Part shown: positions 4,854-59,913 of the stretch, piece by piece
Numbering within the stretch: the first letter of the stretch is position 1
How the letters are laid out: each line of letters starts with the position of its first letter
Assembly: GCF_054482525.1 (NCBI RefSeq)
Contig: NZ_CM137006.1
DNA: 64,000 bases
Direction: 5' to 3' (one strand)
Program-made: the position numbers and the translations under genes
Notes under the pieces: model-generated
The model's input: the letters and a program-made list of their open reading frames with translations, nothing else
What the model was told of the DNA's origin: nothing
The model's database searches: none

Positions 4854-6175
4854 ATGTATCTAACTTATTGTCAAAAACAGCCCAGGCGACCTTACTTCTG
4901 ACTAGTTATTTTTCTAAAGCAACTAGCGAAAACGCCAAACCACTTTCCAACGCCGAATGGGGACGTTTTGCGCTATGGTTGAAAGAAAAAGCAGTTACGC
5001 CAGCTGACTTGTTGGACTCTGATCCTCAAACCTTACTGAATGGCTGGTACGACTCCCGTATCAGTACGGATCGGATCATTGAGTTGATGAATCGAGGACA
5101 TAGCCTCGCTTTGGCTATGGAGAAATGGCAACGGGCAGGCTTGTGGGTAGTGACACGTTCTGATCCAGAATATCCATGGAGATTAAAACATCGGCTTAAA
5201 ACAGACTCTCCCCCTGTTTTATTTGGCTGTGGCAATAAAGCCTTATTAAATAGAGGGGGATTGGCTGTCATTGGTTCTCGAAATGCCAATGCATCAGACC
5301 TTACTTTTACTGATCACATCGGCGTTAAAGCTGCGGACGAAAATATAGCTGTTGTATCTGGTGCTGCACGTGGAGTAGACGAAACAGCCATGTTAGGTGC
5401 AATGAGGCAAGGTGGAGTTGTAATCGGGATTTTGGCAGATAGCCTGTTAAAAGCTGCGACTAGTGCCAAATGGCGCAAGGGGCTTATGAATGACCATGTT
5501 GTGCTAATATCCCCTTTTTACCCTGAGGCTGGTTTCTATGCGGGAAATGCCATGGCTCGCAATAAATATATCTATTGCTTGTCGGATAGTGCATTGGTTA
5601 TTCATTCTGGTCGAAAAGGTGGAACAATTAGTGGGGCAGAGGAAAATCTTAAGAAAGGATGGGTGCCACTATGGGTCAATCCAACAACCGATCTAGATTC
5701 AGCTAATGCTGACTTAGTGAGCAAAGGGGGACATTGGTTGCCAAGTGATAGTAATGGCCTATCCATCGAGAATTTGCTTAAAAATAATGACAGATCAAAA
5801 ATGCAGTTAAAAGCAGAGCCCCAAGATCTTTTTTCAGAATTGTCGCATCCAGAATTAATTATTGGATCTGCAGAGAAATCGTCAACTCAAGCTCTCGAAA
5901 AAGATTGGACTGCTACTATTAATGAAGAAACTCCCAACCTAATAACTACGGAAAAAAAATTAGAGGAAAAAGAGTTAGATGTAAATCCTATAGACTTTTA
6001 TCTGCTATTCAGGACAGAATTACAGCGATTGGCCGAACATCCAATTACAGTAGATAGGTTGACAGAAGTCACTGGGTTGAATAAATCGCAAGTGCTTGAT
6101 TGGTTGAAACGTGCTGAACAAGATGGTTTGGTAAAAAAACTAAACCGTCCTACAAGATATCAATTAAATGAGTAG
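4850..6175 (+). CDS. DprA/Smf-like Rossmann-fold protein; ShosA-like candidate
   Basis: 441 aa ORF whose ATG overlaps the upstream stop (ATGA). DprA-type motifs: LAVIGSRNAN, VVSGAARGVDETAMLGA, ARNKYIYCLSDSALVIHSG. Confidence 0.7.
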   Translation: MNVSNLLSKTAQATLLLTSYFSKATSENAKPLSNAEWGRFALWLKEKAVTPADLLDSDPQTLLNGWYDSRISTDRIIELMNRGHSLALAMEKWQRAGLWVVTRSDPEYPWRLKHRLKTDSPPVLFGCGNKALLNRGGLAVIGSRNANASDLTFTDHIGVKAADENIAVVSGAARGVDETAMLGAMRQGGVVIGILADSLLKAATSAKWRKGLMNDHVVLISPFYPEAGFYAGNAMARNKYIYCLSDSALVIHSGRKGGTISGAEENLKKGWVPLWVNPTTDLDSANADLVSKGGHWLPSDSNGLSIENLLKNNDRSKMQLKAEPQDLFSELSHPELIIGSAEKSSTQALEKDWTATINEETPNLITTEKKLEEKELDVNPIDFYLLFRTELQRLAEHPITVDRLTEVTGLNKSQVLDWLKRAEQDGLVKKLNRPTRYQLNE

Positions 6176-6271
6176 TAACAGGCTTTAATGAAGCAACTAT
6201 AACCGGTTTGGCCTTAATGATTTTTAGTTAAGCTTGGGCATATAAAAGTTTAGAATTGATATAATGGTATT

Positions 6272-6302
6272 CAATTACATTAGTGTTGAGCTAATGTAAT
6301 TG
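6272..6302. terminator. hairpin between convergent genes (12-bp stem caattacattag / ctaatgtaattg, 7-nt loop)
   Basis: Inverted repeat read directly in the gap between the DprA-like gene end (6175) and the RelA/SpoT-like gene end (6357). Confidence 0.45.
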
Positions 6303-6356
6303 ATCCTGATTTAAATATCATCTATCAGAATTGAACAATTTTACATAGTTTATACT

Positions 6357-7346
6357 TTATGTCTTTCTTTCAAGTGCAACTCCTAGATCCGCTGCCATTT
6401 TTTGGATTAGCCTCCAATCTAGCGGCCATTCTTTTTCTAAAGTAGATCTCCGTCTTTTGATTAACCAGTAAACGAAAATAACAACGCTTTGTTCAAAGAA
6501 ACTACTCCCTTCTTTGCCATCCTGAATTAGTAGTTCGAGCTCAGGAGTCTCTTCTATAAATTGATGTAATCTTTCTATCGTATCGGGTTTGATCACTTCT
6601 TTAAATGTATCTAGAATTAATAAAGTCGATTTTTGATTGTTTGGTTTATTCTTTGTTAAAGCTATGTAGATATTATCTAAAGTTCGCTGAATTCCTGCGT
6701 AACCATCAGATGCTGCGTTAATTGCTTTCGATACTGAACAGAAAAAATCATCCGTAGTTTCTATTAACGCCATGCTTTTTGCTACAGTTCTATGTATATC
6801 TGGTTCAACTATAGTTTTTGCTTTATATATGGCATCATGAGTTAACTCGGCATAGGCATGTTGTAATAAAGATCTAACCTGTATCTCACATGGAATGCCT
6901 TGTTCAATGATAACTCCATTATAATCAAAGGATTCTTTTGCAGTTACTATAAAATGTACGGATTGATACGTGAAAATTAATGGTGTATTTAATCTTTCTT
7001 CTTCGTAGTGTCTTGATGTCTTATAATGCCATTTATTACTACTTTTTATTATTTCACATATTTCATCTATATCTGAAGTAAGTAAAACGACAAACCTGAT
7101 GCCAACTTTATCTTCAATCTCTTGGTAGGGGTTTTTGTATGATTTTTCTTTTCGATGAAAAGCTTTATCGATTAGAGATGTCTTTTCTTTTATTCTCGGT
7201 GTCGCAGGTTGCTTGAGAAAGCTATTGAGGTCCCGCTCTTTATTTTCTGAGAGTTCTTTGCAAATATTTGAGACGACAAAATCTCCCCATGCTTTATACA
7301 TGGGTAGTTCTTTTTCCCAAAGTTGCGAAAACTCTAATTCATTCAT
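6357..7346 (-). CDS. RelA/SpoT-domain nucleotidyltransferase (alarmone-synthetase-like, stand-alone)
   Basis: 329 aa ORF. Synthetase-domain motifs GIRFVVLL, YQSVHFIV, EIQVRSLLQHAYAELTHD; no hydrolase or TGS/ACT region seen. Start ATG 8 nt after upstream stop. Confidence 0.65.
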   Translation of the reverse strand: MNELEFSQLWEKELPMYKAWGDFVVSNICKELSENKERDLNSFLKQPATPRIKEKTSLIDKAFHRKEKSYKNPYQEIEDKVGIRFVVLLTSDIDEICEIIKSSNKWHYKTSRHYEEERLNTPLIFTYQSVHFIVTAKESFDYNGVIIEQGIPCEIQVRSLLQHAYAELTHDAIYKAKTIVEPDIHRTVAKSMALIETTDDFFCSVSKAINAASDGYAGIQRTLDNIYIALTKNKPNNQKSTLLILDTFKEVIKPDTIERLHQFIEETPELELLIQDGKEGSSFFEQSVVIFVYWLIKRRRSTLEKEWPLDWRLIQKMAADLGVALERKT

Positions 7347-7354
7347 TAATTAGC

Positions 7355-8446
7355 TCATTCCTGAAGGGTTATCTTGTCCTTGATGAGGATTGTTGTCCAC
7401 TCAGCAGGTTTACCATCTTTATCGAGTTCACCTATAGTAGATTCAATTACAATATGGCTTTTAAAAACTTCCGCAGGGGCTGTGATTTTTATATTTTTAC
7501 TAAAGTTAAGCTTTCTTGTTTTTAATTTGCTTTCAATATGCTCGTTGTCTCTTGTGAAAGAGGTTTGTGGTATACCAGATTCATGAGCATACTCAAGATA
7601 AAGATCCTTAATACTATCATCAAAAAATCTTTCAGCATAATCTTTAGCTGAAATTACATCCGATTTTTCATGTTTAAGATATGTAACTAATGCATTTTTA
7701 AGCACATTTTTCTTTTCCTCGCTGACATCCAATTCATTAAGAAATTCACTCGTTTTTTCATAGAAATTCTTTGTTGTGCGGGCACTTGTTTCTGGGTAAC
7801 CGCAACCTAAAAAATTTTGATAAAAATATTGTGCTGCAGCTTTACCATCCGACTTACTGATTTGATAGTCAGAAATCATCACATCCCAAGATTTATTAAG
7901 ATCAGTATTATCAAGAGAATTGGTTGATTGGAAAAAACCGGCAGTTTTATAAAGTTTTGTGGATGGTGTAAGTAATATTTCTTCAACGAATTTTAATGAT
8001 ATTTGGCCCGTTTTATCGTCGATTACTTTTTCATATGCACTATAAATATCAGCCTTGATAATTCCAATGAATTTTCTTTTATTTACACCATAGTCGCCAG
8101 AAAAGATTACTACAATTCCGCCTGGAATTGCTCGTCTTGTCTGCGCATCTGCCAGTTTATTAGCTATTGTGTAAGTCTCATCAATATAATCCTCTCCCTC
8201 TTTATCAATTAAAGTTGTAGCAATATAAGGAACATAATCTTTTCCATGCTCCTTTATTTGCATTTTTACGGCTTTAGAACCATCACCTAAAGCGTCGATT
8301 ACTCGTGATTTAAAACCTTGCAAGGCATCAGCATCAAATTTTATAAATGAAGAACCTCTTGTTGGTTCTATTTTGTTTCCTTCTTCGTCGCGCTGATGAA
8401 TTTGGTGGATAATTATTTTGTTAATATTCATTTTGCTGATATTCAT
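7355..8446 (-). CDS. NdpA/YejK-like (NA37 family) nucleoid-associated protein homologue
   Basis: 363 aa ORF. N-terminus IIIHQIHQRDEEG resembles the E. coli YejK IALHQLIKRDEQ region as I recall it. AT-rich. 17-nt gap to upstream gene. Confidence 0.55.
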   Translation of the reverse strand: MNISKMNINKIIIHQIHQRDEEGNKIEPTRGSSFIKFDADALQGFKSRVIDALGDGSKAVKMQIKEHGKDYVPYIATTLIDKEGEDYIDETYTIANKLADAQTRRAIPGGIVVIFSGDYGVNKRKFIGIIKADIYSAYEKVIDDKTGQISLKFVEEILLTPSTKLYKTAGFFQSTNSLDNTDLNKSWDVMISDYQISKSDGKAAAQYFYQNFLGCGYPETSARTTKNFYEKTSEFLNELDVSEEKKNVLKNALVTYLKHEKSDVISAKDYAERFFDDSIKDLYLEYAHESGIPQTSFTRDNEHIESKLKTRKLNFSKNIKITAPAEVFKSHIVIESTIGELDKDGKPAEWTTILIKDKITLQE

Positions 8447-8463
8447 TTCTGTGTAGTTCCATC

Positions 8464-8931
8464 TTATTGATTATCTGATTTTATATTTTTGCTTTCAATA
8501 TATTCTTTGTGAATATTATTCCATTCTTGACTGTCTTTTTCCCAAATAGATTTATATTCATCAAAAAGACTATCAATATCTGACTGGGTTACATCTTCTT
8601 TGGATTTTAAGTAATTAACTTTGTTTCTAAGTTGATACATGGCTAGCAAAGTAGCTTTTTGCCTAAACCATAATTTTTGATAATCAAATCTTGCAGTCCA
8701 CCCACTAACTAGAGTAAGACAGGCACTCACAATAAGAGCAGAATTTTTCTGTATTTTTTCATATCCAGATAAATCGAAGGCTAATATCAGTGTAGTAATA
8801 GTGCTCAAAAATATAGTCATGAAAAAAAATATTTTTAATTTTTTTTTATTCCATTTCGCCTTGCACTTTATTATGTTGATACTTTTATGGATTTCATCCA
8901 GTAAAAACTGTTGAGAAGATGTTATAGACAA
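8464..8931 (-). CDS. small membrane protein with two predicted transmembrane helices (SLATT-like topology, unverified)
   Basis: 155 aa ORF; hydrophobic stretches IFFFMTIFLSTITTLILAF and SALIVSACLTLVSGWTA. First codon is TTG; an internal ATG (MTIFL...) is an alternative start. Confidence 0.45.
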   Translation of the reverse strand: MSITSSQQFLLDEIHKSINIIKCKAKWNKKKLKIFFFMTIFLSTITTLILAFDLSGYEKIQKNSALIVSACLTLVSGWTARFDYQKLWFRQKATLLAMYQLRNKVNYLKSKEDVTQSDIDSLFDEYKSIWEKDSQEWNNIHKEYIESKNIKSDNQ

Positions 8932-8971
8932 TTATCTCACCTGAAATATTTTCACATTGGTAATAAAACTA

Positions 8972-9011
8972 CTCGCACTAACTGGTATGAGCTCATACCA
9001 GTTAGTGCGAG
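8972..9011. promoter_or_regulatory. perfect 40-bp palindrome (ctcgcactaactggtatgag / ctcataccagttagtgcgag) between integrase 3' end and the AT-rich operon
   Basis: Read directly; the two 20-nt arms are exact reverse complements centred on gagctc. A U-rich tract follows on the minus strand, so it may terminate the integrase transcript. Confidence 0.5.
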
Positions 9012-9175
9012 CATGGCTACCGCATTTGATGTGCTCAACAGCTTTGTATTGAGATACTTTTAACAATGTTGTATTTAACTAGCTGATACTATTAATTATA
9101 AATGAGAATCAGAGCAAAAACGAGCGGTAGGTAAGATATAGACCGAAAGCATATAAAACCATAAATATCAAATCA

Positions 9176-33225: not shown

Positions 33226-33624
33226 TCAATATCCTAACGCTGGTCTTTTGCCTGTATTAACTGATTTAGCTGGTTTGCTACATATTAATGCCTTCAGATT
33301 TTCCCTTTCCTTGTCTGTGATACTGTCGCAAACCCTACTAGCCCATTCTACTTCACTCTTCTCCAGGCATTCTATTTTCTTATTGCTCATTGTTCTAATG
33401 TTTGGTGTTGCATCTCCATTTAATAACATCCATGTTTCATTTTTCTTCATAAAACATCTTCCATTATGTTCAAAGATATTAGGTGTGAATATATTATCAG
33501 AATCCCATGTTACGACTTGCTCGAGGGCTATATTATCTTGATAGTCCATGCCAGCATTATAATAATCACAAGATATAATTATCATGGAAATAATTATCAC
33601 TAATATATTCCCAAGCATTTCCAT
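33226..33624 (-). CDS. hypothetical small protein with N-terminal hydrophobic signal/lipobox-like segment; candidate Rhs immunity protein
   Basis: 132 aa AT-rich ORF immediately downstream of the Rhs gene; N-terminus ILVIIISMIIISC. Confidence 0.35.
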   Translation of the reverse strand: MEMLGNILVIIISMIIISCDYYNAGMDYQDNIALEQVVTWDSDNIFTPNIFEHNGRCFMKKNETWMLLNGDATPNIRTMSNKKIECLEKSEVEWASRVCDSITDKERENLKALICSKPAKSVNTGKRPALGY

Positions 33625-33873
33625 TTACTTTACCTCTTGAAATTCAAATGGGAATCCAGTGAAAGGACCTTTAGGCATAATATATCTTTGATATCCATAA
33701 AGCTCACCGAGCACTTGTAGGCTTATAGGCGCATTTGTATTCATAGAGGGGTTGTTAAACCCGCACGCCTCAAAAATCATGTTCGTTCGGCTAAAACAAT
33801 TATTTAAAACAGGAAGAGGCCCGAGGTTAATAGTTTTTAGTTTTTTATTAAGGTCTATTGCCTTATTCATCAT
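33625..33873 (-). CDS. hypothetical small protein downstream of Rhs (candidate immunity or orphan toxin-tip fragment)
   Basis: 82 aa AT-rich ORF in the same frame as the Rhs gene, beginning 11 codons after its stop. Confidence 0.3.
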   Translation of the reverse strand: MMNKAIDLNKKLKTINLGPLPVLNNCFSRTNMIFEACGFNNPSMNTNAPISLQVLGELYGYQRYIMPKGPFTGFPFEFQEVK

Positions 33874-37855: not shown

Positions 37856-37931
37856 GGTTTATTCCTTTTCTTTTACCTTACATGTCCATACAAATAGTTA
37901 CCTATACTGTCTTTGAATATTGCCCTACCAT

Positions 37932-38381
37932 TTAAAGCCCACCTATTTCTTGCGACAGAAAAGGGATTTCTTTTTTAATCCAATCTATCATTTCATTTTT
38001 TTCAAAACATACGTTAATGCCATTCACACTTCCACATTCACCAAAACCATCAAAATAAATTTCACATTTATTATTTTTATTCGAAACAATGTCAACCCCC
38101 CATCTTATATCGTTATTCCCCTCCTTCCTGAAATACTTCATTTGCAATAAATCAATTATCTCACCAGCATAAAAATCGCTAACCCCATTCACCACCACTT
38201 TATGTTTGTATATTCTCTTGAGACCTTCCTTGCTAAGCGGGGTTAAGGTGGTAACATATGCTGGAAGATTAATTATTTCTATCGTTTTCACACTATCTAT
38301 TCCACACAATTCATTCACTCGCCCCATCCCCAATACCGAAGCAGAAAATAGAGACAATAAAACCATCAAATATTTCATCAT
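37932..38381 (-). CDS. putative secreted immunity protein for the upstream Rhs toxin
   Basis: 149 aa ORF 12 bp downstream of the Rhs C-terminal domain; signal peptide MMKYLMVLLSLFSASVLG; AT-rich. Confidence 0.45.
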   Translation of the reverse strand: MMKYLMVLLSLFSASVLGMGRVNELCGIDSVKTIEIINLPAYVTTLTPLSKEGLKRIYKHKVVVNGVSDFYAGEIIDLLQMKYFRKEGNNDIRWGVDIVSNKNNKCEIYFDGFGECGSVNGINVCFEKNEMIDWIKKEIPFLSQEIGGL

Positions 38382-42707: not shown

Positions 42708-44816
42708 TCAGTACTCTCTCATATCCGGCGTATCCTGCTTTTCATCAGGGGTCTTCGGTGGGGATTTCGAGGCTGCACAGTTCCAGTTAATCAACAGTGA
42801 GTCACCATTAACCTGCTCCTTACCCTGCAAATGAATTTTTGTGCCGTTGAGAAAAATTTGTCCGTCCTTAGTCAGCACCAGCCTTGCCTTACCACAGCAG
42901 AGTTCCAGATGCTCACCGCCGGAGTAAATCGCGGTCTGCCCGGTATCATCCTTTTTCGTTTTACCAACGGTGAAGGTAACGTTATTTCCGACTTTGACGT
43001 CATAACCCAGCCCGACCATCAACGATTTATGCAAACCGATCTGCGAGGACTGCATCAGGGCCACCGAGGTGTTCATAATGCCACCTACCGTCGTCTGATA
43101 CGCCACGCCCACAGTCAGCGCACGAACAAGTCCAATCGTTTCCACCTGAACAGAGCCCACTTTAATGATCTGGTTACTGCCCACCGTCTCTATCTGGTTA
43201 ACACCCACCGTCTGTATCTGATTGTTGGTAACCGCAATCATCTGATTGTTGCCAATGGTCTCAGCATGGTTGTTTATCACATCCGTGGTGCGGTTATTCA
43301 GCACCTCGGTGTTCATGTTCTTCTGCGCGTGGATGTAGACCTGTTCTTTCCCTGTCGCATCGTCAAACTTCAGTTCATTAAACCCGCTGCCCTTATAGGT
43401 TTTCGAACGAATGGTCATCTGCGTCTTTGTTCCCGGCAGGCTGCCGGGGGTGCGGTTTTCCTGGTGGTAGGTACGCCCCATAATAATCGGCTGGTCCGGA
43501 TCGCCGTTGAGGAAGTCCACAATGACTTCCTGACCCACACGCGGTATCGCCAGGTTGCCAAAGCCGGTGCCTGCCCACGCCTGTGCCACACGGATCCAGC
43601 ATGAACTGTCCTGGTTTGACGGGTTATAGCGGTCCCAGTTAAATTTCACCCGCACGCGGCCATGTTCATCACAGAAGATTTCTTCTCCTGCCGGTCCCGT
43701 CACGACGGCGCTCTGCGGGCCGTCCACCAGCGGTTTCAGCAACGGCTGTGGCCGCCATGTTCTGTCTGCCGGTATTACCGCAAAGTGGTTATTCAGCGTG
43801 GTACCTGAACCCCTGCGTCCCGGCACCGCCTGCGGCTGCTCGCCGTGCAGTTCACTTGCCACCACCTGCCATTCCCGGTTCAGGTTCGCCTGCGGATGCC
43901 CCGTCAGCGCAATTCGCCGTCCCGGCCATATCTCCGGCGAACGGCTTGTTCCGCGCGCCACTTCTGCGTTGTTTCGCCAGCCATCCATCTGCCAGCAGGC
44001 AAAGTTCTGCCCGTGGGCACCCTTGAAACGTCCGGGGTAGTCATACACTTCATACTGTGTGCGCTGGTAATCCTGGTGCTGGCCTTCCTGATCAAAACGC
44101 CCTGCCCAGCCGGGTCGTTTAAAGGTGTAGTCTTTGGTCACCACGGAAGATGGGCGGATTTGTGCGCTGTAGAGGAACTGGCTGATGCATAGGGTGCTCA
44201 CCTCGGTACGGGTGTTCGGATTCCAGGGGATCTCAAAGGACTCCGGCAGATAACGCACGGTGTCGCACAGGACCAGGCTCTGGTCGGTACTTTTTTGCGC
44301 GTGCTCCTCATAAAAGAAGATGCCTTCCTCCGCCGCCATCCGGCACAGGAAATCGTAATCGGTTTCGCCGTACTGGACACAAAACTCACGGGAAGGATGC
44401 GGCTCGCTGAACAGCGGACTCCACTCGGTCACCCCGTTTTCTTTCAGGATCGTCGCGAGTATGCTTTCGATGTCCTCATTCTGGAAGATACGGAAGTTCT
44501 GGCGCAGCCCTGTGCGCCACAGCGGTGGGCACACCTTCATGCTGTACAGCATCTGGTTTTTGTCGTTCTCCCCCAGTTCAAACCAGGTCACCACACCTTT
44601 CACCCGGCGCTGTACGTCATCGCCCTGCCATACCGTCAGGTAGGCCATTTTGTCCAGCACCTGCGCAAATTCAAGGGAGAGAAACTGCTGGCTGACCAGA
44701 GAGAGATCGAGGGAAAAGAGCGAAGAGAGTGACTGGTTCAGATGAAAGGAGACCACCGCAAACGCGTCCGGTGGCAGGCCGTCCACTTCCAGCGTGAAAC
44801 GTAATCCGGTTGACAT
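42708..44816 (-). CDS. vgrG: type VI secretion spike protein VgrG (TssI)
   Basis: 702 aa with VgrG-type gp27/gp5-like layout; immediately upstream of the Rhs gene. Confidence 0.9.
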   Translation of the reverse strand: MSTGLRFTLEVDGLPPDAFAVVSFHLNQSLSSLFSLDLSLVSQQFLSLEFAQVLDKMAYLTVWQGDDVQRRVKGVVTWFELGENDKNQMLYSMKVCPPLWRTGLRQNFRIFQNEDIESILATILKENGVTEWSPLFSEPHPSREFCVQYGETDYDFLCRMAAEEGIFFYEEHAQKSTDQSLVLCDTVRYLPESFEIPWNPNTRTEVSTLCISQFLYSAQIRPSSVVTKDYTFKRPGWAGRFDQEGQHQDYQRTQYEVYDYPGRFKGAHGQNFACWQMDGWRNNAEVARGTSRSPEIWPGRRIALTGHPQANLNREWQVVASELHGEQPQAVPGRRGSGTTLNNHFAVIPADRTWRPQPLLKPLVDGPQSAVVTGPAGEEIFCDEHGRVRVKFNWDRYNPSNQDSSCWIRVAQAWAGTGFGNLAIPRVGQEVIVDFLNGDPDQPIIMGRTYHQENRTPGSLPGTKTQMTIRSKTYKGSGFNELKFDDATGKEQVYIHAQKNMNTEVLNNRTTDVINNHAETIGNNQMIAVTNNQIQTVGVNQIETVGSNQIIKVGSVQVETIGLVRALTVGVAYQTTVGGIMNTSVALMQSSQIGLHKSLMVGLGYDVKVGNNVTFTVGKTKKDDTGQTAIYSGGEHLELCCGKARLVLTKDGQIFLNGTKIHLQGKEQVNGDSLLINWNCAASKSPPKTPDEKQDTPDMREY

Positions 44817-45025
44817 AGCAACCTCCGGGTTTAAGGAAAAACAGACAGTTCGCTGTTAAAGCGGCTGTAACAGTACAGTGTTACGCTTGCGTTCAGGCAC
44901 GCTACCGCCGAAGTTTCCGGCATCCGCCATCTCCCGTGAACGTAACCCCTTACTGACAACCTTTCTTTTTACGGCGTAATACAAAAACAGCATCCGGCCT
45001 AATAGCCGGATGCTGTTGGCTTAAC

Positions 45026-45544
45026 TTATGCTTCCAGCGGTGCGCGCCAGTCGTCGGCACCGGAGGTGCCAGACTTGACGTGTTCCCACTCTATTTTGCG
45101 GTAGGCCAGTGAAACTTCGAGCAACTGGGTGAACTCGCGTTTCGCCGGATCCTGGCAATGCGGCATATGCAGTTTCATATCGACAATCGTCGAATCGGTC
45201 AGGCGGGTGGTGAAATAATGCTCCTGTTTGCCTTCCACAGAGGTACGCCACCAGTGAAGTTCAGTGGTTGGCAGCATTTCGCCGGAGGCCAGTGCGTTGT
45301 ACATCAGCGGAACAGCTTTGTTCAGCGCCACGGTAAAAATGAACGGCTTGTGAGCACGCTGACCCGCAGGCTGGCCGGACTGAGGATCGGTCGGGACAGT
45401 AACGTTATGCAGGAATTCCTGCACCAGCATCTCGTCTTCGTGCCCCTGCACATAGATGTTGCCGACAGAATCAGCGGTAAATGCACCTGCAGTAATATTT
45501 CCCTGGGTCTGACCTGTGATGGAGATATAACACGGTGTTGGCAT
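45026..45544 (-). CDS. hcp: type VI secretion tube protein Hcp (TssD)
   Basis: 172 aa translation with typical Hcp sequence (MPTPCYISITGQTQGNITAGAFTADSVGNIYVQGHEDEMLVQEF...). Confidence 0.9.
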   Translation of the reverse strand: MPTPCYISITGQTQGNITAGAFTADSVGNIYVQGHEDEMLVQEFLHNVTVPTDPQSGQPAGQRAHKPFIFTVALNKAVPLMYNALASGEMLPTTELHWWRTSVEGKQEHYFTTRLTDSTIVDMKLHMPHCQDPAKREFTQLLEVSLAYRKIEWEHVKSGTSGADDWRAPLEA

Positions 45545-46240
45545 TTGTAAACTCCTTGTTAACGTGGTTAATTACTACTTACAATGACCTGCCGTTAATC
45601 CCAGACAGGCAGATGCAGCTCACTTCACGGAACCGCATCATTTTTCAGTATTTTTTACATACAAACCGAGCTAGAATTTACGGTTGTCGTAAAAACTATT
45701 TTTAAAATCATTAAATCTCTTATTCAGCAATAAGTTAATAATATATATCTGGATAACCATACCCAACTATTCAAAGTCCGTATTGCCTCCATAAAATGGC
45801 CAAAGCTGAATCATGAATAAATATTGTATTTATCCTTTCTGAATTATCATTTTGATAATTTTTGAGATATTCCTTAAAAATACCCACTTAATCAATCACA
45901 AAACAAATATATAAACAAGCAATCATCAGATTAGCTTATGTTTAATGAAATTATTGTATAATTCAATAAGTTACATAAAAGCTCTATATTTAAATTATTG
46001 CCATAATACACCTGACGCGAATTGCACAGGTTCACACAATCTATTTAACGCTTGCAGAATACCCCTCTTTACGATCGATAAAAAGTCCTTTTCTTATTTA
46101 TTTTGAAGCGTAGAATGCGGGGTGATGAAGGAGTGGTGATTTTATTTTCACCGCCATTATGGCGGCATTGCCGATATTTTTTTGCGGTACAAATATGCCG
46201 TGTTCATGGCCTGTACGAGATAACATGACGGATCACTTTT
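45545..46240. promoter_or_regulatory. AT-rich divergent hcp / tssB control region with a Fur-box-like motif near 45841-45860
   Basis: About 700 bp without convincing ORFs between divergent hcp and tssB; gaattatcattttgataatt resembles the Fur consensus. Confidence 0.35.
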
Positions 46241-46741
46241 ATGAGCAAAAAATTTGAAGGCAGCGTCGCGCCTCGCGAGCGTATAAATATATCCTATGTC
46301 CCGAAGACGGACGGCCAGACGGCTGAAGTAGAGCTTCCGCTTAACATGCTCGTTGTCGGCGATACCGGAAATACGCAGGAGACATCCCCACTGGATGAAC
46401 GTCAGGCAGTTTCCGTTAACAAGCACAATTTCGGTGCAGTAATGGCTGAAGCAGCCATTGGCCTCAATTTTACCGTCCCCGCCACGCTGAAGGGAAGCAC
46501 AACGGACGATGAACTGAATGTGGCGCTGAATATCAAGTCACTGGATGATTTTTCACCGGACAGCGTGGCCCGGCAGGTTCCGGAAGTGAATAAATTGCTG
46601 GAACTGCGTGAAGCACTGACTGCGCTGAAGGGGCCGATGGGCAACCTTCCGGCATTCCGTACCCAGCTCCAGGCATTGCTGGAAAATGAGGAGTCCCGCG
46701 AGCAGTTGCTTAAAGAAATCGGCCAGGTGAGTGGGAAATAA
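46241..46741 (+). CDS. tssB: T6SS contractile sheath small subunit TssB (VipA)
   Basis: 166 aa translation typical of TssB (MSKKFEGSVAPRERINISYVPKTDGQTAEVELPLNMLVVGD...). Confidence 0.9.
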   Translation: MSKKFEGSVAPRERINISYVPKTDGQTAEVELPLNMLVVGDTGNTQETSPLDERQAVSVNKHNFGAVMAEAAIGLNFTVPATLKGSTTDDELNVALNIKSLDDFSPDSVARQVPEVNKLLELREALTALKGPMGNLPAFRTQLQALLENEESREQLLKEIGQVSGK

Positions 46742-46775
46742 CCACCACTATTTCATTAAACAGGGTTATCCAGAC

Positions 46776-46982
46776 ATGGCGGCACACAAAAATATCTCCG
46801 GGAAACACCCCCTCTCTGACGAAGACATTTTGCAGGCGGTTTACCGGGTATGTTTCAGCCCGTCCGGTGAAATCAACCGGGATGGCGTGGATGCGCTGAT
46901 TACAACACTGGATCGCCGTATCAGTGATCTATTGGATGAGATTATCCATCTTTGTGAGTTTCAGCAGAGCGCGCCGTACTGA
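46776..46982 (+). CDS. hypothetical small protein between tssB and tssC (coding status uncertain)
   Basis: ORF 46731..46982 with an internal ATG at 46776; occupies an unusually long tssB-tssC spacer. No domain recognised. Confidence 0.25.
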   Translation: MAAHKNISGKHPLSDEDILQAVYRVCFSPSGEINRDGVDALITTLDRRISDLLDEIIHLCEFQQSAPY

Positions 46983-48949: not shown

Positions 48950-50800
48950 ATGGAATTTGAAGAACGCTATTTCCGGGAAGAACTCGATTACCTGCGCCAG
49001 CTCAGCAAGCTGCTGGCAACGGAAAAACCCCATCTTGCCCGCTTCCTGGCCGAAAAAGATGCGGATCCGGATATTGAACGCCTGCTGGAAGGCGTGGCTT
49101 TTCTTACCGGCAATCTCCGCCAGAAAATTGAGGATGAATTCCCAGAACTGACGCACGGGCTTATTAAGATGCTCTGGCCTAATTACCTGCGTCCGGTTCC
49201 GGCAATGACCCTTATTGAATATACGCCGGATATGGATAAGTCTTCTGTGCCGGTGTTAATCCCCCGTAATGAGCAGTTTACAACCAAAGCCGGGGAAATC
49301 AGAGTCGATGAAGTGCTGCCCTCCGATGCTAAAAAGGAGGAGCCGCCTCCCTGTACCTTCACCCTCTGCCGGGATATCTGGCTGCTGCCCGTTCGCCTGG
49401 AGCAGATTGAAAACCGCAGTACGACCCGTAATGGTGTTATCAACATCACCTTTTCGGTCGCACCGGGAACGGACTTCCGCACGCTGGATCTGAACAAACT
49501 TCGCTTCTGGCTCGGCAATGACGACAACTATACCCGTGACCAGCTTTATTTATGGTTCTGTGAATACTTGCAGGGTGCCGACCTGACTGTGGGTGAACAG
49601 CATATTCGCCTGCCTGAGTTTATGCTGAAAGCTGTCGGTTTTGAGCCGCAGGATGCCATGCTGCCCTGGCCGAAAAACCTCCACAGCGGCTACCGGATCC
49701 TTCAGGAGTATTTCTGTTACCCGGATGCGTTTCTCTTTTTTGATCTTTGTGGTTGCCCGGCGTTGCCTGACGGATTGCAGGCTGAATCCTTTACCCTGCA
49801 ACTGCGTTTTTCGCGCCCATTGCCCGTGGACATCCGGCTGCGCCGCGATTCTCTGCGCCTGTATTGCGCACCTGCCATTAATTTATTTATCCACCATGCA
49901 GAAGCCATCACGCTGGACAACCGGCGGGCAGACTATCCGCTGGTTCCCAGCCGCCACTATCCGGAACATTACGATGTCTTTTCCGTTAACGGCGTGGTGA
50001 GCCAGGTGCAGGATATGTTCAGGAAAAAAGATCTGGGGCGTCCTGTTTCGACGCAGGCCGCGCGCCAGTGGCCTGCCTTTGAAAGTTTCAGCCATCAGAT
50101 GGAATACAGCCGGAAGCGGGAAGTGGTGTACTGGCATCACCGGACCAAAACATCCCTGTTCCATCGCGGCTTTGATCATACCCTTGCTTTTATACATGCT
50201 GATGGCAGTTATCCGTCAGACGAATCGCTGCTCAGTAATGAAGTGGTTTCGGTATCGCTGACCTGTACCAACCGTGAGCTTCCGTCACAAATTCGTTCCG
50301 GCGATATCACCGGCACAACCGGTAAAAATGCGGCTGTTGCTTCATTTCGCAACATTACCCGCCCGACGCAACCGCTCTGGCCGGTCATTGATGGCAGCCT
50401 GCACTGGTCCCTGCTCTCCGCCATGAACCTGAATTATCTGTCATTACTGGATACGGACGCGCTGAAGCAGGTCATCGCCAACTTTGATCGCCACGCAATC
50501 CATCATCCGCAGACGGCGCGGCTGTCACAACAAAAGCTGGATGCCATTGAGCGTCTGGAGACCCGCCCTGTCGATCGCCTGTTTACGGGCATTCCCGTCC
50601 GGGGGCTGGCCTCCACGCTGTATCTGCACCCGGAGCCGTTTGTCTGTGAAGGGGAAATGTATCTGCTTGGTACGGTGCTTTCGCATTTTCTGTCGCTGTA
50701 CGCCAGCGTTAACTCATTCCACATGCTGACCGTTGTGAACACAGAAAGCCAGGAGACATGGAAATGGACGGAAAGAACCGGGCAGCATCCTCTTATCTGA
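48950..50800 (+). CDS. tssF: T6SS baseplate protein TssF
   Basis: 616 aa translation typical of TssF. Confidence 0.85.
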   Translation: MEFEERYFREELDYLRQLSKLLATEKPHLARFLAEKDADPDIERLLEGVAFLTGNLRQKIEDEFPELTHGLIKMLWPNYLRPVPAMTLIEYTPDMDKSSVPVLIPRNEQFTTKAGEIRVDEVLPSDAKKEEPPPCTFTLCRDIWLLPVRLEQIENRSTTRNGVINITFSVAPGTDFRTLDLNKLRFWLGNDDNYTRDQLYLWFCEYLQGADLTVGEQHIRLPEFMLKAVGFEPQDAMLPWPKNLHSGYRILQEYFCYPDAFLFFDLCGCPALPDGLQAESFTLQLRFSRPLPVDIRLRRDSLRLYCAPAINLFIHHAEAITLDNRRADYPLVPSRHYPEHYDVFSVNGVVSQVQDMFRKKDLGRPVSTQAARQWPAFESFSHQMEYSRKREVVYWHHRTKTSLFHRGFDHTLAFIHADGSYPSDESLLSNEVVSVSLTCTNRELPSQIRSGDITGTTGKNAAVASFRNITRPTQPLWPVIDGSLHWSLLSAMNLNYLSLLDTDALKQVIANFDRHAIHHPQTARLSQQKLDAIERLETRPVDRLFTGIPVRGLASTLYLHPEPFVCEGEMYLLGTVLSHFLSLYASVNSFHMLTVVNTESQETWKWTERTGQHPLI

Positions 50801-51846
50801 GTCCGGGAAATCCCCCGGCAGATAAAGAGCAGAATGATCCGCTGGCACAGGTTTTTCATAACGCCTGCTCTTACAATTTTTTTGCCATGGCGGAGCTGTT
50901 GCACCGCCTGGCACAGGGTGAAAAGGGGACGCTGGAATTATCCCTGCGCGACGATCCGGCACAGGAAACCCTGCGTTTCAGCGCCGATGCCAGCCTTGCG
51001 TTTCCCCTGAGTGATATCAGTGCGCTGAAACGGGATACGTCAGGGTCATTCAGGATGACCACCACCTTTATGGGGTTACAGGGGAGCCAGTCGCCTCTCC
51101 CCGGTTATTACCTCGATCACCTGGCCTGGAAAGCGGTACATGAACAAAGTCCGGTAGGTGATTTTCTGGATATGTTCAGCCACCGCCTGACCCAGTTTGT
51201 CTGGCATATCTGGCGTAAGTACCGCTATCACATCAGTTTTCGTAACGGCGGTGTGGATGCGTTCTCGCAGCGCATGTACTCCCTTGTCGGGCTGGGCCAC
51301 CGCCACCTTCGCGATAAGCTGGCGATTAATCACAGCAAAATGCTGGCGTATTCCGGGATCCTGGCAAATCCGGGACGATCCCCGGAAATCATCTGCGGTC
51401 TGGTGTCCCACTGCTTTGATTTGTCAGACGTGATGCTGCAAAACTGGCAACGTCGCAAGGTGGATATTGAACCGGATCAGCAAAATAGCCTGGGGAGCTA
51501 TTCACTTAAAAATGGCGAAAAACTGGCAGGAAGATCGGTACTGGGCAACTTTGTTCTGGGTACACGGGTGCCCGATCTCAGCGGAAAATTCCAGCTCAGT
51601 ATTACCAGCCTGACCCGAAAACAGTTCCTCTCTTTTCTGCCGTCCGGCGAAAACTTCCTGCCACTGACGATGTTTGTGTCCTTCATCCTGCGCGATCAGC
51701 TTGCCTGGGACTTACATCTGGGGCTGGCGCCGGAGCAGGTGGGCGCAATGCGCCTGGGCGATAACAAAAGTGCGCTGCTGGGCTGGACCAGCTTCCTCGG
51801 CACACCGGAAGAACGACCCTCAGTCACCATCAGGGTACGGTCGTAA
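50764..51846 (+). CDS. tssG: T6SS baseplate protein TssG
   Basis: ORF 50758..51846 overlapping the tssF end; second ATG at 50764 has better RBS spacing. Contains YNFFAMAELLHRL. Confidence 0.8.
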   Translation: MDGKNRAASSYLSPGNPPADKEQNDPLAQVFHNACSYNFFAMAELLHRLAQGEKGTLELSLRDDPAQETLRFSADASLAFPLSDISALKRDTSGSFRMTTTFMGLQGSQSPLPGYYLDHLAWKAVHEQSPVGDFLDMFSHRLTQFVWHIWRKYRYHISFRNGGVDAFSQRMYSLVGLGHRHLRDKLAINHSKMLAYSGILANPGRSPEIICGLVSHCFDLSDVMLQNWQRRKVDIEPDQQNSLGSYSLKNGEKLAGRSVLGNFVLGTRVPDLSGKFQLSITSLTRKQFLSFLPSGENFLPLTMFVSFILRDQLAWDLHLGLAPEQVGAMRLGDNKSALLGWTSFLGTPEERPSVTIRVRS

Positions 51847-57129: not shown

Positions 57130-59913
57130 ATGATCCAGATTGATCTTCCCACGCTGGTAAAACGGCTTAACCTGTTCTCCCGCCAGGCGCTGGAGATGGC
57201 CGCCTCTGAATGTATGAGCCAGCAGGCAGCGGAAATTACCGTCAGCCATGTGCTTATTCAGATGCTCGCCATGCCACGCAGCGACCTGCGGGTTATTACC
57301 CGCCAGGGCGATATTGGCATGGAAGAGTTGCGCCAGGCGCTGACGGTGGAGAACTACACAACTGCCCGTTCTGCGGACAGCTACCCGGCATTTTCCCCGA
57401 TGCTGGTTGAGTGGCTGAAAGAGGGCTGGCTGCTGGCGTCGGCTGAGATGCAGCACAGCGAATTGCGTGGCGGCGTGTTGCTGCTGGCCCTGCTGCATTC
57501 GCCGCTGCGTTATATACCGCCTGCTGCCGCCCGGTTGTTGACCGGCATTAACCGTGACCGTCTGCAACAGGACTTTGTACAGTGGACACAGGAGTCGGCG
57601 GAATCAGTCGTGCCGGATGCAGACGGTAAAGTCGCAGGCACACTGACGGACGCTGCTGACACCCTGCTTGCCCGCTACGCCAAAAACATGACCGCAGACG
57701 CCCGTAACGGCAGGCTTGACCCGGTACTGTGCCGCGACCACGAAATCGACCTGATGATCGACATTCTCTGCCGCCGCCGCAAGAACAACCCGGTGGTGGT
57801 GGGCGAAGCAGGCGTGGGTAAAAGTGCCTTAATCGAAGGGCTGGCGCTGCGCATCGTGGCAGGCCAGGTGCCGGACAAACTGAAAAACACCGATATCATG
57901 ACCCTTGACCTGGGCGCATTGCAGGCCGGGGCGTCGGTGAAGGGCGAATTCGAAAAACGCTTCAAGGGGCTGATGGCGGAGGTCATTTCCTCTCCGGTGC
58001 CGGTCATTCTGTTTATTGACGAAGCACATACCCTGATTGGCGCGGGCAACCAGCAGGGCGGGCTGGATATCTCCAACCTGCTCAAACCGGCGCTGGCGCG
58101 CGGCGAACTGAAAACCATCGCCGCCACCACCTGGAGCGAATACAAAAAATACTTCGAGAAAGATGCCGCCCTGTCGCGCCGCTTCCAGCTGGTGAAGGTC
58201 AGCGAACCCAACGCCGCCGAAGCCACCATTATTCTGCGTGGTCTGTCGGCGGTCTATGAACAGTCTCACGGCGTGCTGATTGATGATGACGCCTTGCAGG
58301 CCGCAGCAACGCTGAGCGAACGTTATCTCTCCGGGCGTCAGTTGCCGGACAAAGCCATTGATGTGCTGGATACCGCCTGCGCCCGCGTCGCCATTAACCT
58401 TTCCTCGCCGCCGAAGCAAATCTCGGCGCTGACCACTCTGAGCCACCAGCAGGAGGCGGAAATTCGCCAGCTTGAGCGCGAGCTTCGCATCGGGCTGCGT
58501 ACCAACACCTCACGGATGACCGAGGTGCTGGTGCAGTACGATGAAACGCTGACGGCGCTGGATGAACTGGAAGCGGCCTGGCATCAGCAGCAGGCGCTGG
58601 TCCGGGAGATTATCGCGCTGCGCCAGCAGTTGCTGGGCGTGGCAGAAGACGATGCGGCGTCGTTGCCGGACGCAGATGCCGCGGAGGATACGCCGCCAGA
58701 GTCAGAGTCAGAGTCAGAGTCAGAGTCAGAACAGGATAATACCGGTGCCGTACCGGCTGATGAGGCCGACAGAGAACAGCCGGAAGAGACCGCTGAAACA
58801 GTTTCCCCGGTACAGCGGCTGGCCCAGCTCACTGCCGAACTGGACGCCCTGCATAACGACCGGTTGCTGGTCTCCCCGCACGTCGATAAAAAACAGATTG
58901 CGGCGGTGATTGCCGAATGGACCGGCGTGCCGCTCAACCGCCTGTCGCAGAATGAAATGTCGGTCATCACCGACCTGCCGAAATGGCTGGGCGACACCAT
59001 CAAAGGCCAAGACCTGGCGATTGCCAGCCTGCATAAGCATCTACTGACCGCACGCGCCGACCTGCGTCGTCCGGGACGCCCGCTCGGTGCGTTCCTGCTG
59101 GCTGGCCCCAGCGGTGTGGGTAAAACCGAAACCGTCCTGCAACTGGCAGAGCTGCTCTACGGCGGTCGCCAGTACCTGACCACCATCAATATGTCCGAGT
59201 TCCAGGAGAAACACACCGTCTCGCGGCTGATTGGCTCCCCTCCGGGCTATGTCGGCTATGGCGAAGGCGGCGTACTGACCGAAGCGATCCGCCAGAAACC
59301 CTACTCGGTGGTGCTGCTCGATGAAGTGGAAAAAGCGCACCCGGATGTCCTCAACCTGTTCTACCAGGCGTTCGACAAGGGCGAGATGGCAGACGGCGAA
59401 GGCCGCCTGATTGACTGTAAAAACATCGTTTTCTTCCTCACCTCCAACCTTGGTTATCAGGTGATTGTCGAACACGCCGATGACCCGGAAACCATGCAGG
59501 AAGCCCTCTATCCGGTGCTGGCGGACTTCTTTAAACCTGCCTTGCTGGCGCGCATGGAAGTGGTGCCTTACATGCCGCTGTCGAAAGAGACGCTCGCTAC
59601 CATTATTGCCGGGAAACTGGCCCGCCTGGATAACGTGCTGCGCAGCCGCTTTGGCGCGGACGTGATTATTGAGCCGGAAGTGACGGACGAAATCATGAGC
59701 CGTGTCACCCGCGCTGAAAACGGCGCAAGGATGCTCGAATCGGTCATCGATGGCGACATGCTACCGCCGCTCTCGCTGCTGCTGTTGCAGAAAATGGCGG
59801 CTAACACGGCGATTGCCCGGATTCGGTTGTCGGCGGTGGACGACGCATTTACGGCAGACGTGGAAGATGCTCAGAACGACGAGTCCGTCACAAAGGATGA
59901 AACGGTTTTATGA
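57130..59913 (+). CDS. clpV: T6SS AAA+ ATPase ClpV (TssH)
   Basis: ORF 57016..59913; ATG at 57130 gives a Clp/Hsp100-type protein with two Walker A motifs (GEAGVGKSAL, GPSGVGKTET). Confidence 0.9.
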   Translation: MIQIDLPTLVKRLNLFSRQALEMAASECMSQQAAEITVSHVLIQMLAMPRSDLRVITRQGDIGMEELRQALTVENYTTARSADSYPAFSPMLVEWLKEGWLLASAEMQHSELRGGVLLLALLHSPLRYIPPAAARLLTGINRDRLQQDFVQWTQESAESVVPDADGKVAGTLTDAADTLLARYAKNMTADARNGRLDPVLCRDHEIDLMIDILCRRRKNNPVVVGEAGVGKSALIEGLALRIVAGQVPDKLKNTDIMTLDLGALQAGASVKGEFEKRFKGLMAEVISSPVPVILFIDEAHTLIGAGNQQGGLDISNLLKPALARGELKTIAATTWSEYKKYFEKDAALSRRFQLVKVSEPNAAEATIILRGLSAVYEQSHGVLIDDDALQAAATLSERYLSGRQLPDKAIDVLDTACARVAINLSSPPKQISALTTLSHQQEAEIRQLERELRIGLRTNTSRMTEVLVQYDETLTALDELEAAWHQQQALVREIIALRQQLLGVAEDDAASLPDADAAEDTPPESESESESESEQDNTGAVPADEADREQPEETAETVSPVQRLAQLTAELDALHNDRLLVSPHVDKKQIAAVIAEWTGVPLNRLSQNEMSVITDLPKWLGDTIKGQDLAIASLHKHLLTARADLRRPGRPLGAFLLAGPSGVGKTETVLQLAELLYGGRQYLTTINMSEFQEKHTVSRLIGSPPGYVGYGEGGVLTEAIRQKPYSVVLLDEVEKAHPDVLNLFYQAFDKGEMADGEGRLIDCKNIVFFLTSNLGYQVIVEHADDPETMQEALYPVLADFFKPALLARMEVVPYMPLSKETLATIIAGKLARLDNVLRSRFGADVIIEPEVTDEIMSRVTRAENGARMLESVIDGDMLPPLSLLLLQKMAANTAIARIRLSAVDDAFTADVEDAQNDESVTKDETVL
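58699..58728 (+). repeat. in-frame hexanucleotide tandem repeat (gagtca)x5 encoding (Glu-Ser)5 inside clpV
   Basis: Five exact gagtca units read directly; translated as ESESESESES in the ClpV inter-domain region. Confidence 0.8.

Follow-up and report, generated by a model that had tools for sequence, protein, structure and literature searches.

Does the divergent control region between hcp and tssB of a type VI secretion system (T6SS) of Escherichia coli answer to iron through Fur, as a Fur-box-like motif within it had led a sequence-only reading to propose, or is it governed by other means? The window (the whole stretch of DNA that was analysed, 64 kb) contains a complete type VI secretion cluster. 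The Hcp tube protein is encoded by hcp (45026 to 45544, minus strand), a 172-aa ORF matching Pfam T6SS_HCP (E 5e-31), whose identity is also backed by the RefSeq annotation of near-identical loci. The gene is named hcp3 in EHEC and hcp2B in APEC and leads the leftward hcp-vgrG-rhs arm, in which vgrG occupies 42708 to 44816 of the minus strand with its ATG at 44816. The small sheath subunit is encoded by tssB (46241 to 46741, plus strand), a 166-aa ORF matching Pfam T6SS_VipA (E 1e-51); by the annotation of homologous loci it heads a rightward structural operon that begins tssB-tssC-tssE-tssF-tssG-tagH-tssJ-tssK-tssL-tssH. From the ORFs and Pfam matches the gap between the two divergent genes, put at about 700 bp in the sequence-only reading, measures 696 bp (45545 to 46240). 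We conclude, with a probability of about 0.8, that it is an H-NS-silenced bidirectional T6SS-2 control region that is not controlled by Fur.

The annotated neighbours yafV, ivy, tRNA-Asp and rhs place the cluster at the aspV (yafV-ivy) site, and the locus is therefore the T6SS-2 of the literature. T6SS-2 is the commonest T6SS of E. coli and is implicated in EHEC, APEC and ExPEC virulence; it cannot be switched on in vitro. EHEC O157:H7, E. coli W and PCN033 carry the cluster, as do about 40% of the complete E. coli genomes: the gap occurs at ≥95% identity in 2235 of 5426, in one copy each time, and none of the listed E. coli genomes that carry it has an annotated feature within it. Identity is 100% in PCN033 and WP4-S18-ESBL-07. 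PCN033 has IS200C in tssG and a frameshifted vgrG, whereas both genes are intact here (tssG at 50758 to 51846), thus the window is not PCN033 itself. The gap of the EHEC O157:H7 T6SS-2 (PMC5363993, PMC13141884), termed t6sP in PMC13141884, belongs to the same locus, is about 97% identical and carries an identical palindrome; it is reported to be H-NS-repressed, silent in vitro and equipped with several start sites, the window representing another E. coli lineage. APEC and B2/D strains, UTI89 and 042 among them, have another, strongly diverged version of this gap, which BLAST aligns to the window gap only over about 100 bp beside hcp. The divergent hcp/tssB region is thus an ordinary control region already known from earlier studies.

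The gap has a G+C content of 33%, falling to 23.5% in its core (45690 to 46000), and the 300 bp from 45691 have the lowest G+C in the window (24% versus 51.9% overall), which bears out the AT-richness ascribed to it. Other AT-rich spots in the window are the rhs-associated islands at about 6 to 9 kb, 33.4 kb and 37.9 kb. The idea of an H-NS-silenced AT-rich locus holds for the gap, by composition and by the literature, but not for the locus as a whole, which has about 52% G+C. In EHEC the cluster is de-repressed in a Δhns strain, that is, H-NS represses it (Wan et al. 2017, PMC5363993). Both H-NS binding between hcp3 and tssB and several start sites within this gap are given in PMC13141884 on the authority of Kim et al. 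2022 (J Microbiol 60:928), as cited there. Vazquez-Lopez et al. 2026 (PMC13141884) term the gap an “unknown bidirectional promoter” and found no medium that activates the EHEC hcp3/tssB promoter. In APEC, hcp2B, clpV2 and hcp2A of T6SS2 are up in Δhns (Ma et al. 2018, PMC5874247). H-NS silencing of the T6SS-2 divergent promoter is therefore supported by the composition of the gap here and, for repression itself, by the EHEC and APEC literature. Nucleation of the H-NS filament would plausibly take place in the core, 45690 to 46000. The H-NS motif tCGwTwAATT occurs nine times in the gap at 8/10 positions (6.7 ± 2.8 expected from composition) and not at all at 9/10 or better; the gap is thus not enriched in this 10-mer above compositional expectation. 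One motif-like sequence, TCGATAAAAA at 46075 to 46084, is kept in E. albertii.

The palindrome, AATTATCA-ttt-TGATAATT at 45842 to 45860, is a perfect everted 8-bp inverted repeat. The 20-mer gaattatcattttgataatt, which the sequence-only reading had likened to the Fur consensus, sits exactly where it was placed, at 45841 to 45860; the likeness itself does not rise above chance. In the best register (45842 to 45860) 12 of 19 positions agree with the Fur consensus GATAATGATAATCATTATC, while the best match in first-order Markov sequences of the same composition is 12.5 ± 0.9, and matches of 12 to 13/19 also occur elsewhere in the gap. Perfect 8-bp inverted repeats whose spacer is at most 8 turn up in 19% of random sequences matched for composition. 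The palindrome has its arms in everted order (ATTATCA-n3-TGATAAT), the reverse of the TGATAAT-n-ATTATCA of the Fur 7-1-7 motif, with 3 nt between them, so that it has none of the Fur half-site architectures (7-1-7, 6-1-6 or three in-phase hexamers). Within the gap, the closest matches to 7-1-7 (10/14) and to 6-1-6 (9/12) are no better than chance and lie elsewhere than the palindrome.

A Fur matrix was built from 12 intergenic regions, each of them both a Fur ChIP-exo peak of Sakai O157:H7 and a classical Fur target (fhuA, fepA-fes, fepD-entS, fepB-entC, fiu, cirA, ryhB, chuA, fhuE, sufA, feoA and yncE). It picks up the classical consensus, at 15.1 bits, and in leave-one-out scoring the genuine sites of the 12 regions range from 7.7 to 22.1 bits (median 16.2). 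The palindrome scores 11.1 bits, below 11 of the 12 genuine sites. Such matrix scoring had been suggested as a check on the Fur proposal and does not favour it, as 28% of composition-matched random 696-bp sequences reach 11.1 bits or more. Within the gap the palindrome is nevertheless the best match, and in the 64-kb window the third; the top three in the gap are 11.1, 10.2 and 8.9 bits at 45842, 45816 and 45691. Overlapping Fur sites offset by 6 bp are known to form clusters (Chen et al. 2007, PMC2189734), and most of the genuine regions have two or more strong overlapping matches (for example 21.6/19.5 and 23.4/19.3 bits). The matrix scan of the gap located no overlapping site shifted by 6 bp beside the palindrome.

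Fur occupancy was taken from Gao et al. 2023 (PMC10164565), who performed Fur ChIP-exo in nine strains, each both iron-replete and iron-starved. The Sakai gap (263,438 to 264,133) contains the identical 20-mer, with the palindrome at about 263.8 kb; under neither iron condition is there a peak between 193,075 and 288,115 (Dataset 2). The gap of E. coli W (260,316 to 261,012) contains the identical 19-mer, with the palindrome at about 260.7 kb; again no peak is recorded in either condition between 190,105 and 358,916 (Dataset 2). H-NS presumably occupies the region in those cells and could mask a weak Fur site. A peak of similar map position in ATCC 8739 (P108) belongs to an unrelated IS/pco island in a strain without T6SS-2. 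In the Δfur/wild-type RNA-seq of strain W from the same study, neither tssB (log2 fold change 0.94, p 0.19) nor hcp (0.66, p 0.18) changed significantly, with vgrG at −0.03 and tssC at 0.25; the positive controls fhuC, fhuD and fhuB rose by 2.4 to 2.6. The upward drift of tssB and hcp amounts to 1.6- to 1.9-fold and is non-significant at very low counts. The Fur pan-regulon table (Dataset 4) contains no ECs023x or ECW_RS011x/012x entry, hence neither tssB nor hcp of the loci with the palindrome. The Fur regulon of the same study includes genes of strain 042 that are annotated as T6SS, thus Fur control of such genes was within its reach. Absence of binding and of a response to fur in these public data essentially refutes the proposed Fur control of hcp and tssB.

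The premise that other E. coli T6SS promoters are controlled by iron and Fur is sound for sci1/T6SS-1 (PMC3145626, PMC5874247). EAEC sci1 (T6SS-1; Brunet et al. 2011, PMC3145626) resembles the window in having a poorly expressed T6SS promoter upstream of tssB. It has, however, two experimentally bound Fur boxes, one of them over the −10 and overlapping a GATC (PMC3145626), whereas the window, which carries another T6SS subtype, shows no Fur occupancy and no GATC at the palindrome. The gap has GATC at 46073 and 46231 alone, well away from the palindrome, and the hallmark of the sci1-type Fur/Dam switch, a GATC over a Fur box at the −10, is missing here. In APEC, T6SS1 is Fur-repressed, while T6SS2 (clpV2, hcp2B) is unresponsive to iron limitation or fur (PMC5874247). 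The APEC/NMEC T6SS2 promoter hcp2B/vipA2 (PMC5874247, PMC6534853) drives an orthologous cluster of the same gene order and is H-NS-repressed and not iron/Fur-regulated, but its gap has diverged beyond BLAST except for the roughly 100 bp by hcp. The APEC result is thus supportive and not decisive, because this B2-type promoter is diverged and lacks the palindrome. A Virtual Footprint scan of the EHEC promoter listed ArgP, CysB, CytR, Fis, LeuO and NarL/P, not Fur (PMC13141884).

The palindrome could still be a weak or cryptic Fur operator, with Fur-Fe sitting over back-to-back −35 elements and iron repression coming to light only after displacement of H-NS, in the host for instance. Its rank as top matrix match in the gap, with a score in the lower range of the genuine sites, its position over both −35-like hexamers, which would suit a repressor, the drift of tssB and hcp in W Δfur and the precedent of the other E. 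coli T6SSs under Fur are all in keeping with this. The score is nonetheless at chance for the composition, the half-sites are everted with a 3-nt spacer and have no 6-bp-shifted partners, the left arm is not conserved (below), and both the ChIP-exo data of two strains, iron-replete or iron-starved, and the pan-regulon table are negative. We regard a cryptic Fur operator as highly improbable and judge that the palindrome is not a working Fur operator and that iron and Fur do not control the T6SS-2 cluster. It spares effort to know which supposed inputs are false, and Fur/iron appears to be among these.

Seven versions of the gap were compared: those of the window, a Citrobacter-labelled MAG, E. 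albertii, UTI89, STLIN13, Yokenella regensburgei and Citrobacter youngae. A contig search with TssB yielded four relatives, and the depth of the footprinting is thus seven distinct promoter versions. Conserved blocks are found at the hcp translation-initiation region (45545 to 45565 and 45574 to 45589) and, elsewhere in the gap, at 45807 to 45830, 45963 to 45975, 46054 to 46070, 46078 to 46094 and 46106 to 46119. None of the blocks that the seven-version alignment shows to be conserved across genera covers the palindrome. Its left arm is conserved at 0.52, equal to the gap mean, and its right arm at 0.70. Symmetry is lost in the 99%-identical Citrobacter-labelled MAG by a single A-to-G change (ATTATCG); E. 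albertii and STLIN13 keep the right arm alone, and UTI89, 042, Yokenella and C. youngae have no palindrome. The right arm TTTGATAA is invariant in five of the seven loci, and TCATTTTGATAATTTTTGAGATA is the same in E. coli and E. albertii, between which the gap as a whole is 64% identical.

These patterns bear on what the palindrome is. Tentatively, and at somewhat under even odds, we take it to be an accident of very AT-rich DNA that does nothing sequence-specific apart from aiding H-NS binding. Such repeats are common in matched random sequences (the 19% given above), one substitution breaks the symmetry in a nearly identical locus, and the B2-type promoter that drives a functional APEC T6SS-2 does without it; the conservation of the right arm and its flanks above the surrounding gap (0.70 versus 0.52) speaks against this. 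That conservation instead fits the palindrome or its right half, TTTGATAA(TT), being the operator of another protein (a counter-silencer or activator; IHF, Fis or LeuO), or simply the two −35 elements. Activators that relieve H-NS at T6SS-2 are still to be named (PMC13141884), which leaves room for such a protein. There is, however, no full IHF, FNR, CRP, CpxR or σ54 consensus over the palindrome, the ARG-box-like matches in the gap (13/16) have non-canonical spacing, and the palindrome lies outside the cross-genus blocks. Across the gap, no σ54, CRP or FNR consensus was matched at the thresholds used and no full IHF match was found. CpxR-P binds and activates the APEC hcp2B promoter (PMC6534853), but the published probe primers fit the B2 sequence and not the window gap, where CpxR direct repeats reach 8 to 9/10 at most (GTAAA-N5-GTAAA at best 8/10).

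The −35 variant of this alternative can be set against the predicted promoters. A minus-strand promoter ATGATA-16-TACAAT is predicted whose −35-like ATGATA (45845 to 45850) is inside the left arm of the palindrome, and on the plus strand the −35-like TTGATA (45852 to 45857), 5/6 to the −35 consensus, is also within it; the palindrome thus overlaps the −35-like hexamers of both consensus-predicted promoters. Promoter-like matches are, however, not enriched in the gap (5 versus 3.8 ± 1.7 in shuffles). Taken together, an operator of another protein or a pair of −35 elements is possible but on the whole doubtful. The narrower proposition that the palindrome or its right half is the operator of a further regulator, one version being cryptic Fur acting after H-NS displacement in the host, is a long shot; if true, the T6SS-2 of EHEC and ExPEC would gain a specific environmental (possibly iron) input that has been missed in vitro.

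The preferred reading, a silenced bidirectional region that does not depend on Fur, places the promoters in the conserved blocks. The most conserved central block, TGAATCATGAATAAATATTGTATT (45807 to 45830, minus strand), has a conservation of 0.85 in five diverged loci, compared with 0.52 gap-wide, and contains the −10-like hexamer of the hcp strand (45823 to 45828), which is TACAAT in the window, TATAAT in STLIN13 and, with the alignment read by eye, TGTAAT in UTI89 and C. youngae. We infer that this block is the hcp promoter, with a predicted start near 45816 and hence a leader some 270 nt long. Towards tssB, a 65-bp module (46054 to 46119, plus strand) composed of GCAGAATACCCCTCTTT (46054 to 46070), ATAAAAAGTCCTTTTCT (46078 to 46094) and AAGCGTAGAATGCG (46106 to 46119) is kept in all seven loci, including Yokenella and C. 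youngae. A −10-like TAGAAT at 46111 to 46116 on the plus strand has no good −35, which suggests that the module may be a tssB promoter that depends on an activator, with a predicted start near 46123 and a leader some 120 nt long. The two promoters would point outward, one to hcp-vgrG-rhs and the other to the tssB structural operon, and the AT-rich core between them would be coated by H-NS, leaving both arms silent in laboratory conditions. Expression would then take relief from H-NS plus additional activating signals. The palindrome would be AT-rich promoter-core sequence with chance GATAAT/ATTATC-like words.

A further layer may act after initiation, consisting of a CsrA-type hcp leader and, beyond it, a terminator followed by an RfaH ops element before vgrG. 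The hcp leader contains a hairpin (45588 to 45609, minus strand; RNA CCUGUC-UGGGAUUAAC-GGCAGG) whose loop has GGA (45599 to 45601) on its 5′ side. On the hcp-mRNA strand 40 of 42 pair cells are kept, compared with 35 of 42 on the other strand; compensatory C-G/U-A and U·G/U-A/C-G changes are observed, and the loop GGA is present in all six diverged loci. A second GGA lies at the hcp Shine–Dalgarno sequence AAGGAG (45552 to 45557, minus strand). With one GGA in a hairpin loop and another at the Shine–Dalgarno, the leader has the look of a classical two-site CsrA-type arrangement, to which CsrA would be predicted to bind on sequence grounds. CsrA repression of hcp3 in EHEC is reported in PMC13141884, citing Wang 2017; as presented there, the noted site is only that near the Shine–Dalgarno. 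The minimum-free-energy fold contains a second hairpin, GAUGCGGUUC...GAGCUGCAUC (45612 to 45639, minus strand), also visible by eye in UTI89 and E. albertii. In the tssB leader the single-sequence fold is unremarkable (z −1.7), and RNAalifold returned only invariant weak UCAUGG/start-codon-region pairing with no covariation. A candidate attenuator there, a hairpin plus T-run at 46160 to 46182, was rejected: it is not conserved, and the T-run is broken in UTI89 and E. albertii. A mini-ORF at 46205 (ATGGCCTGTACGAGATAA) was also rejected, as reading of the alignment shows neither its length nor its frame to be conserved. An Rfam scan of 45000 to 46800 at E ≤ 1 gave no match.

Outside the hcp/tssB gap, the hcp-vgrG spacer is 209 bp long and is the “h3R” of PMC13141884, which makes no mention of an ops element in it. 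The hcp intrinsic terminator lies in this spacer at 44983 to 45015. A perfect RfaH ops element, GGCGGTAGCGTG (44898 to 44909, minus strand, in the vgrG sense on the non-template strand), is located about 75 nt past the terminator and precedes the vgrG ATG by about 80 nt. The untranslated vgrG leader thus contains the 12-nt consensus by which an RfaH/ops operon is recognised from sequence, and RfaH may act at this site. Control of an H-NS-silenced T6SS by RfaH and ops is reported for EAEC sci1 (bioRxiv 10.1101/2025.02.08.637259), the same study notes that EDL933 carries ops elements, and cryptic RfaH loci are described in CFT073 (PMC9765446). The sci1 ops1/ops2 sites and the CFT073 loci are like the window in having a consensus ops on the non-template strand in an intergenic leader right after hcp, within a T6SS cluster silenced by H-NS. 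The window element differs from that of sci1 in preceding vgrG-rhs and not clpV and in following an intrinsic terminator. Promoter-swapped EHEC makes Hcp but not VgrG protein (PMC13141884), an observation to which the ops site and the CsrA-type hairpin may be relevant. For mutagenesis, better targets than the palindrome are the two promoter-like blocks, the hcp-leader GGA hairpin and the hcp-vgrG ops. The ops element is exact in eight further loci (PCN033, two O157:H7, W, STLIN13, the MAG, E. albertii and Yokenella), and UTI89 and C. youngae each differ from it at a single position; it sits inside a block of about 90 nt that is conserved across genera and is present in single copy in 2762 E. 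coli genomes.

A perfect copy of the RfaH recruitment element ops (GGCGGTAGCGTG, 44898-44909, minus strand) is located in the spacer between hcp and vgrG. It sits downstream of the hcp intrinsic terminator (44983-45015) and around 80 nt upstream of vgrG; some 90 nt of sequence enclosing it are conserved as a block. The spacer element itself is kept in Escherichia, Yokenella and Citrobacter, either exactly or with one mismatch. The spacer is the counterpart of the 'h3R' regulatory region of EHEC; the published study of that region makes no mention of RfaH (PMC13141884). A second perfect match to the ops pattern (GGCGGTAGCATG, 59757-59768, minus strand) falls within tssH/clpV, antisense to the coding sequence; PCN033 and Sakai carry it too. 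Around 0.1 perfect matches per window would be expected by chance. We consider this antisense match probably non-functional.

The hcp 5′ leader, also on the minus strand, contains a conserved, strand-specific hairpin (45588-45609) displaying GGA in its loop. Its pairing is retained in 40 of 42 pair cells across six diverged versions of the locus, with compensatory changes present. Together with the hcp Shine-Dalgarno sequence AAGGAG (45552-45557), the hairpin forms a predicted CsrA-type two-site arrangement.

On the tssB side of the gap, a 65-bp module (GCAGAATACCCCTCTTT ... ATAAAAAGTCCTTTTCT ... AAGCGTAGAATGCG, 46054-46119) is conserved even as far as Yokenella and C. youngae. The module has a −10-like TAGAAT and no −35, and is likely an activator-dependent tssB promoter with a putative activator site. 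In the centre of the gap, the intervals 45799-45836 and 45838-45855 hold two ARG-box-like matches, CATGAATAAATATTGTAT and TCTGAATTATCATTTTGA (13/16 each), together with three TGAAT words. The first match falls in the most conserved central block; the pair is spaced by 26 bp, as against the canonical 21 bp for ArgR.

Other AT-rich islands (<32% G+C over 300 bp) are found at 6051-9120, 33351-33720 and 37861-38160. They presumably represent rhs-tip or immunity regions and additional candidate targets of H-NS. Among the window's top matches to the Fur matrix and consensus, several lie inside or near them.

The window matches PCN033 at 99.9%, yet derives from a different strain. Both tssG (50758-51846) and vgrG (42708-44816) are intact here, whereas in the PCN033 RefSeq record (L001) tssG is interrupted by IS200C and vgrG is frameshifted. 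A functional T6SS has nonetheless been published for PCN033 (PMC4882540).
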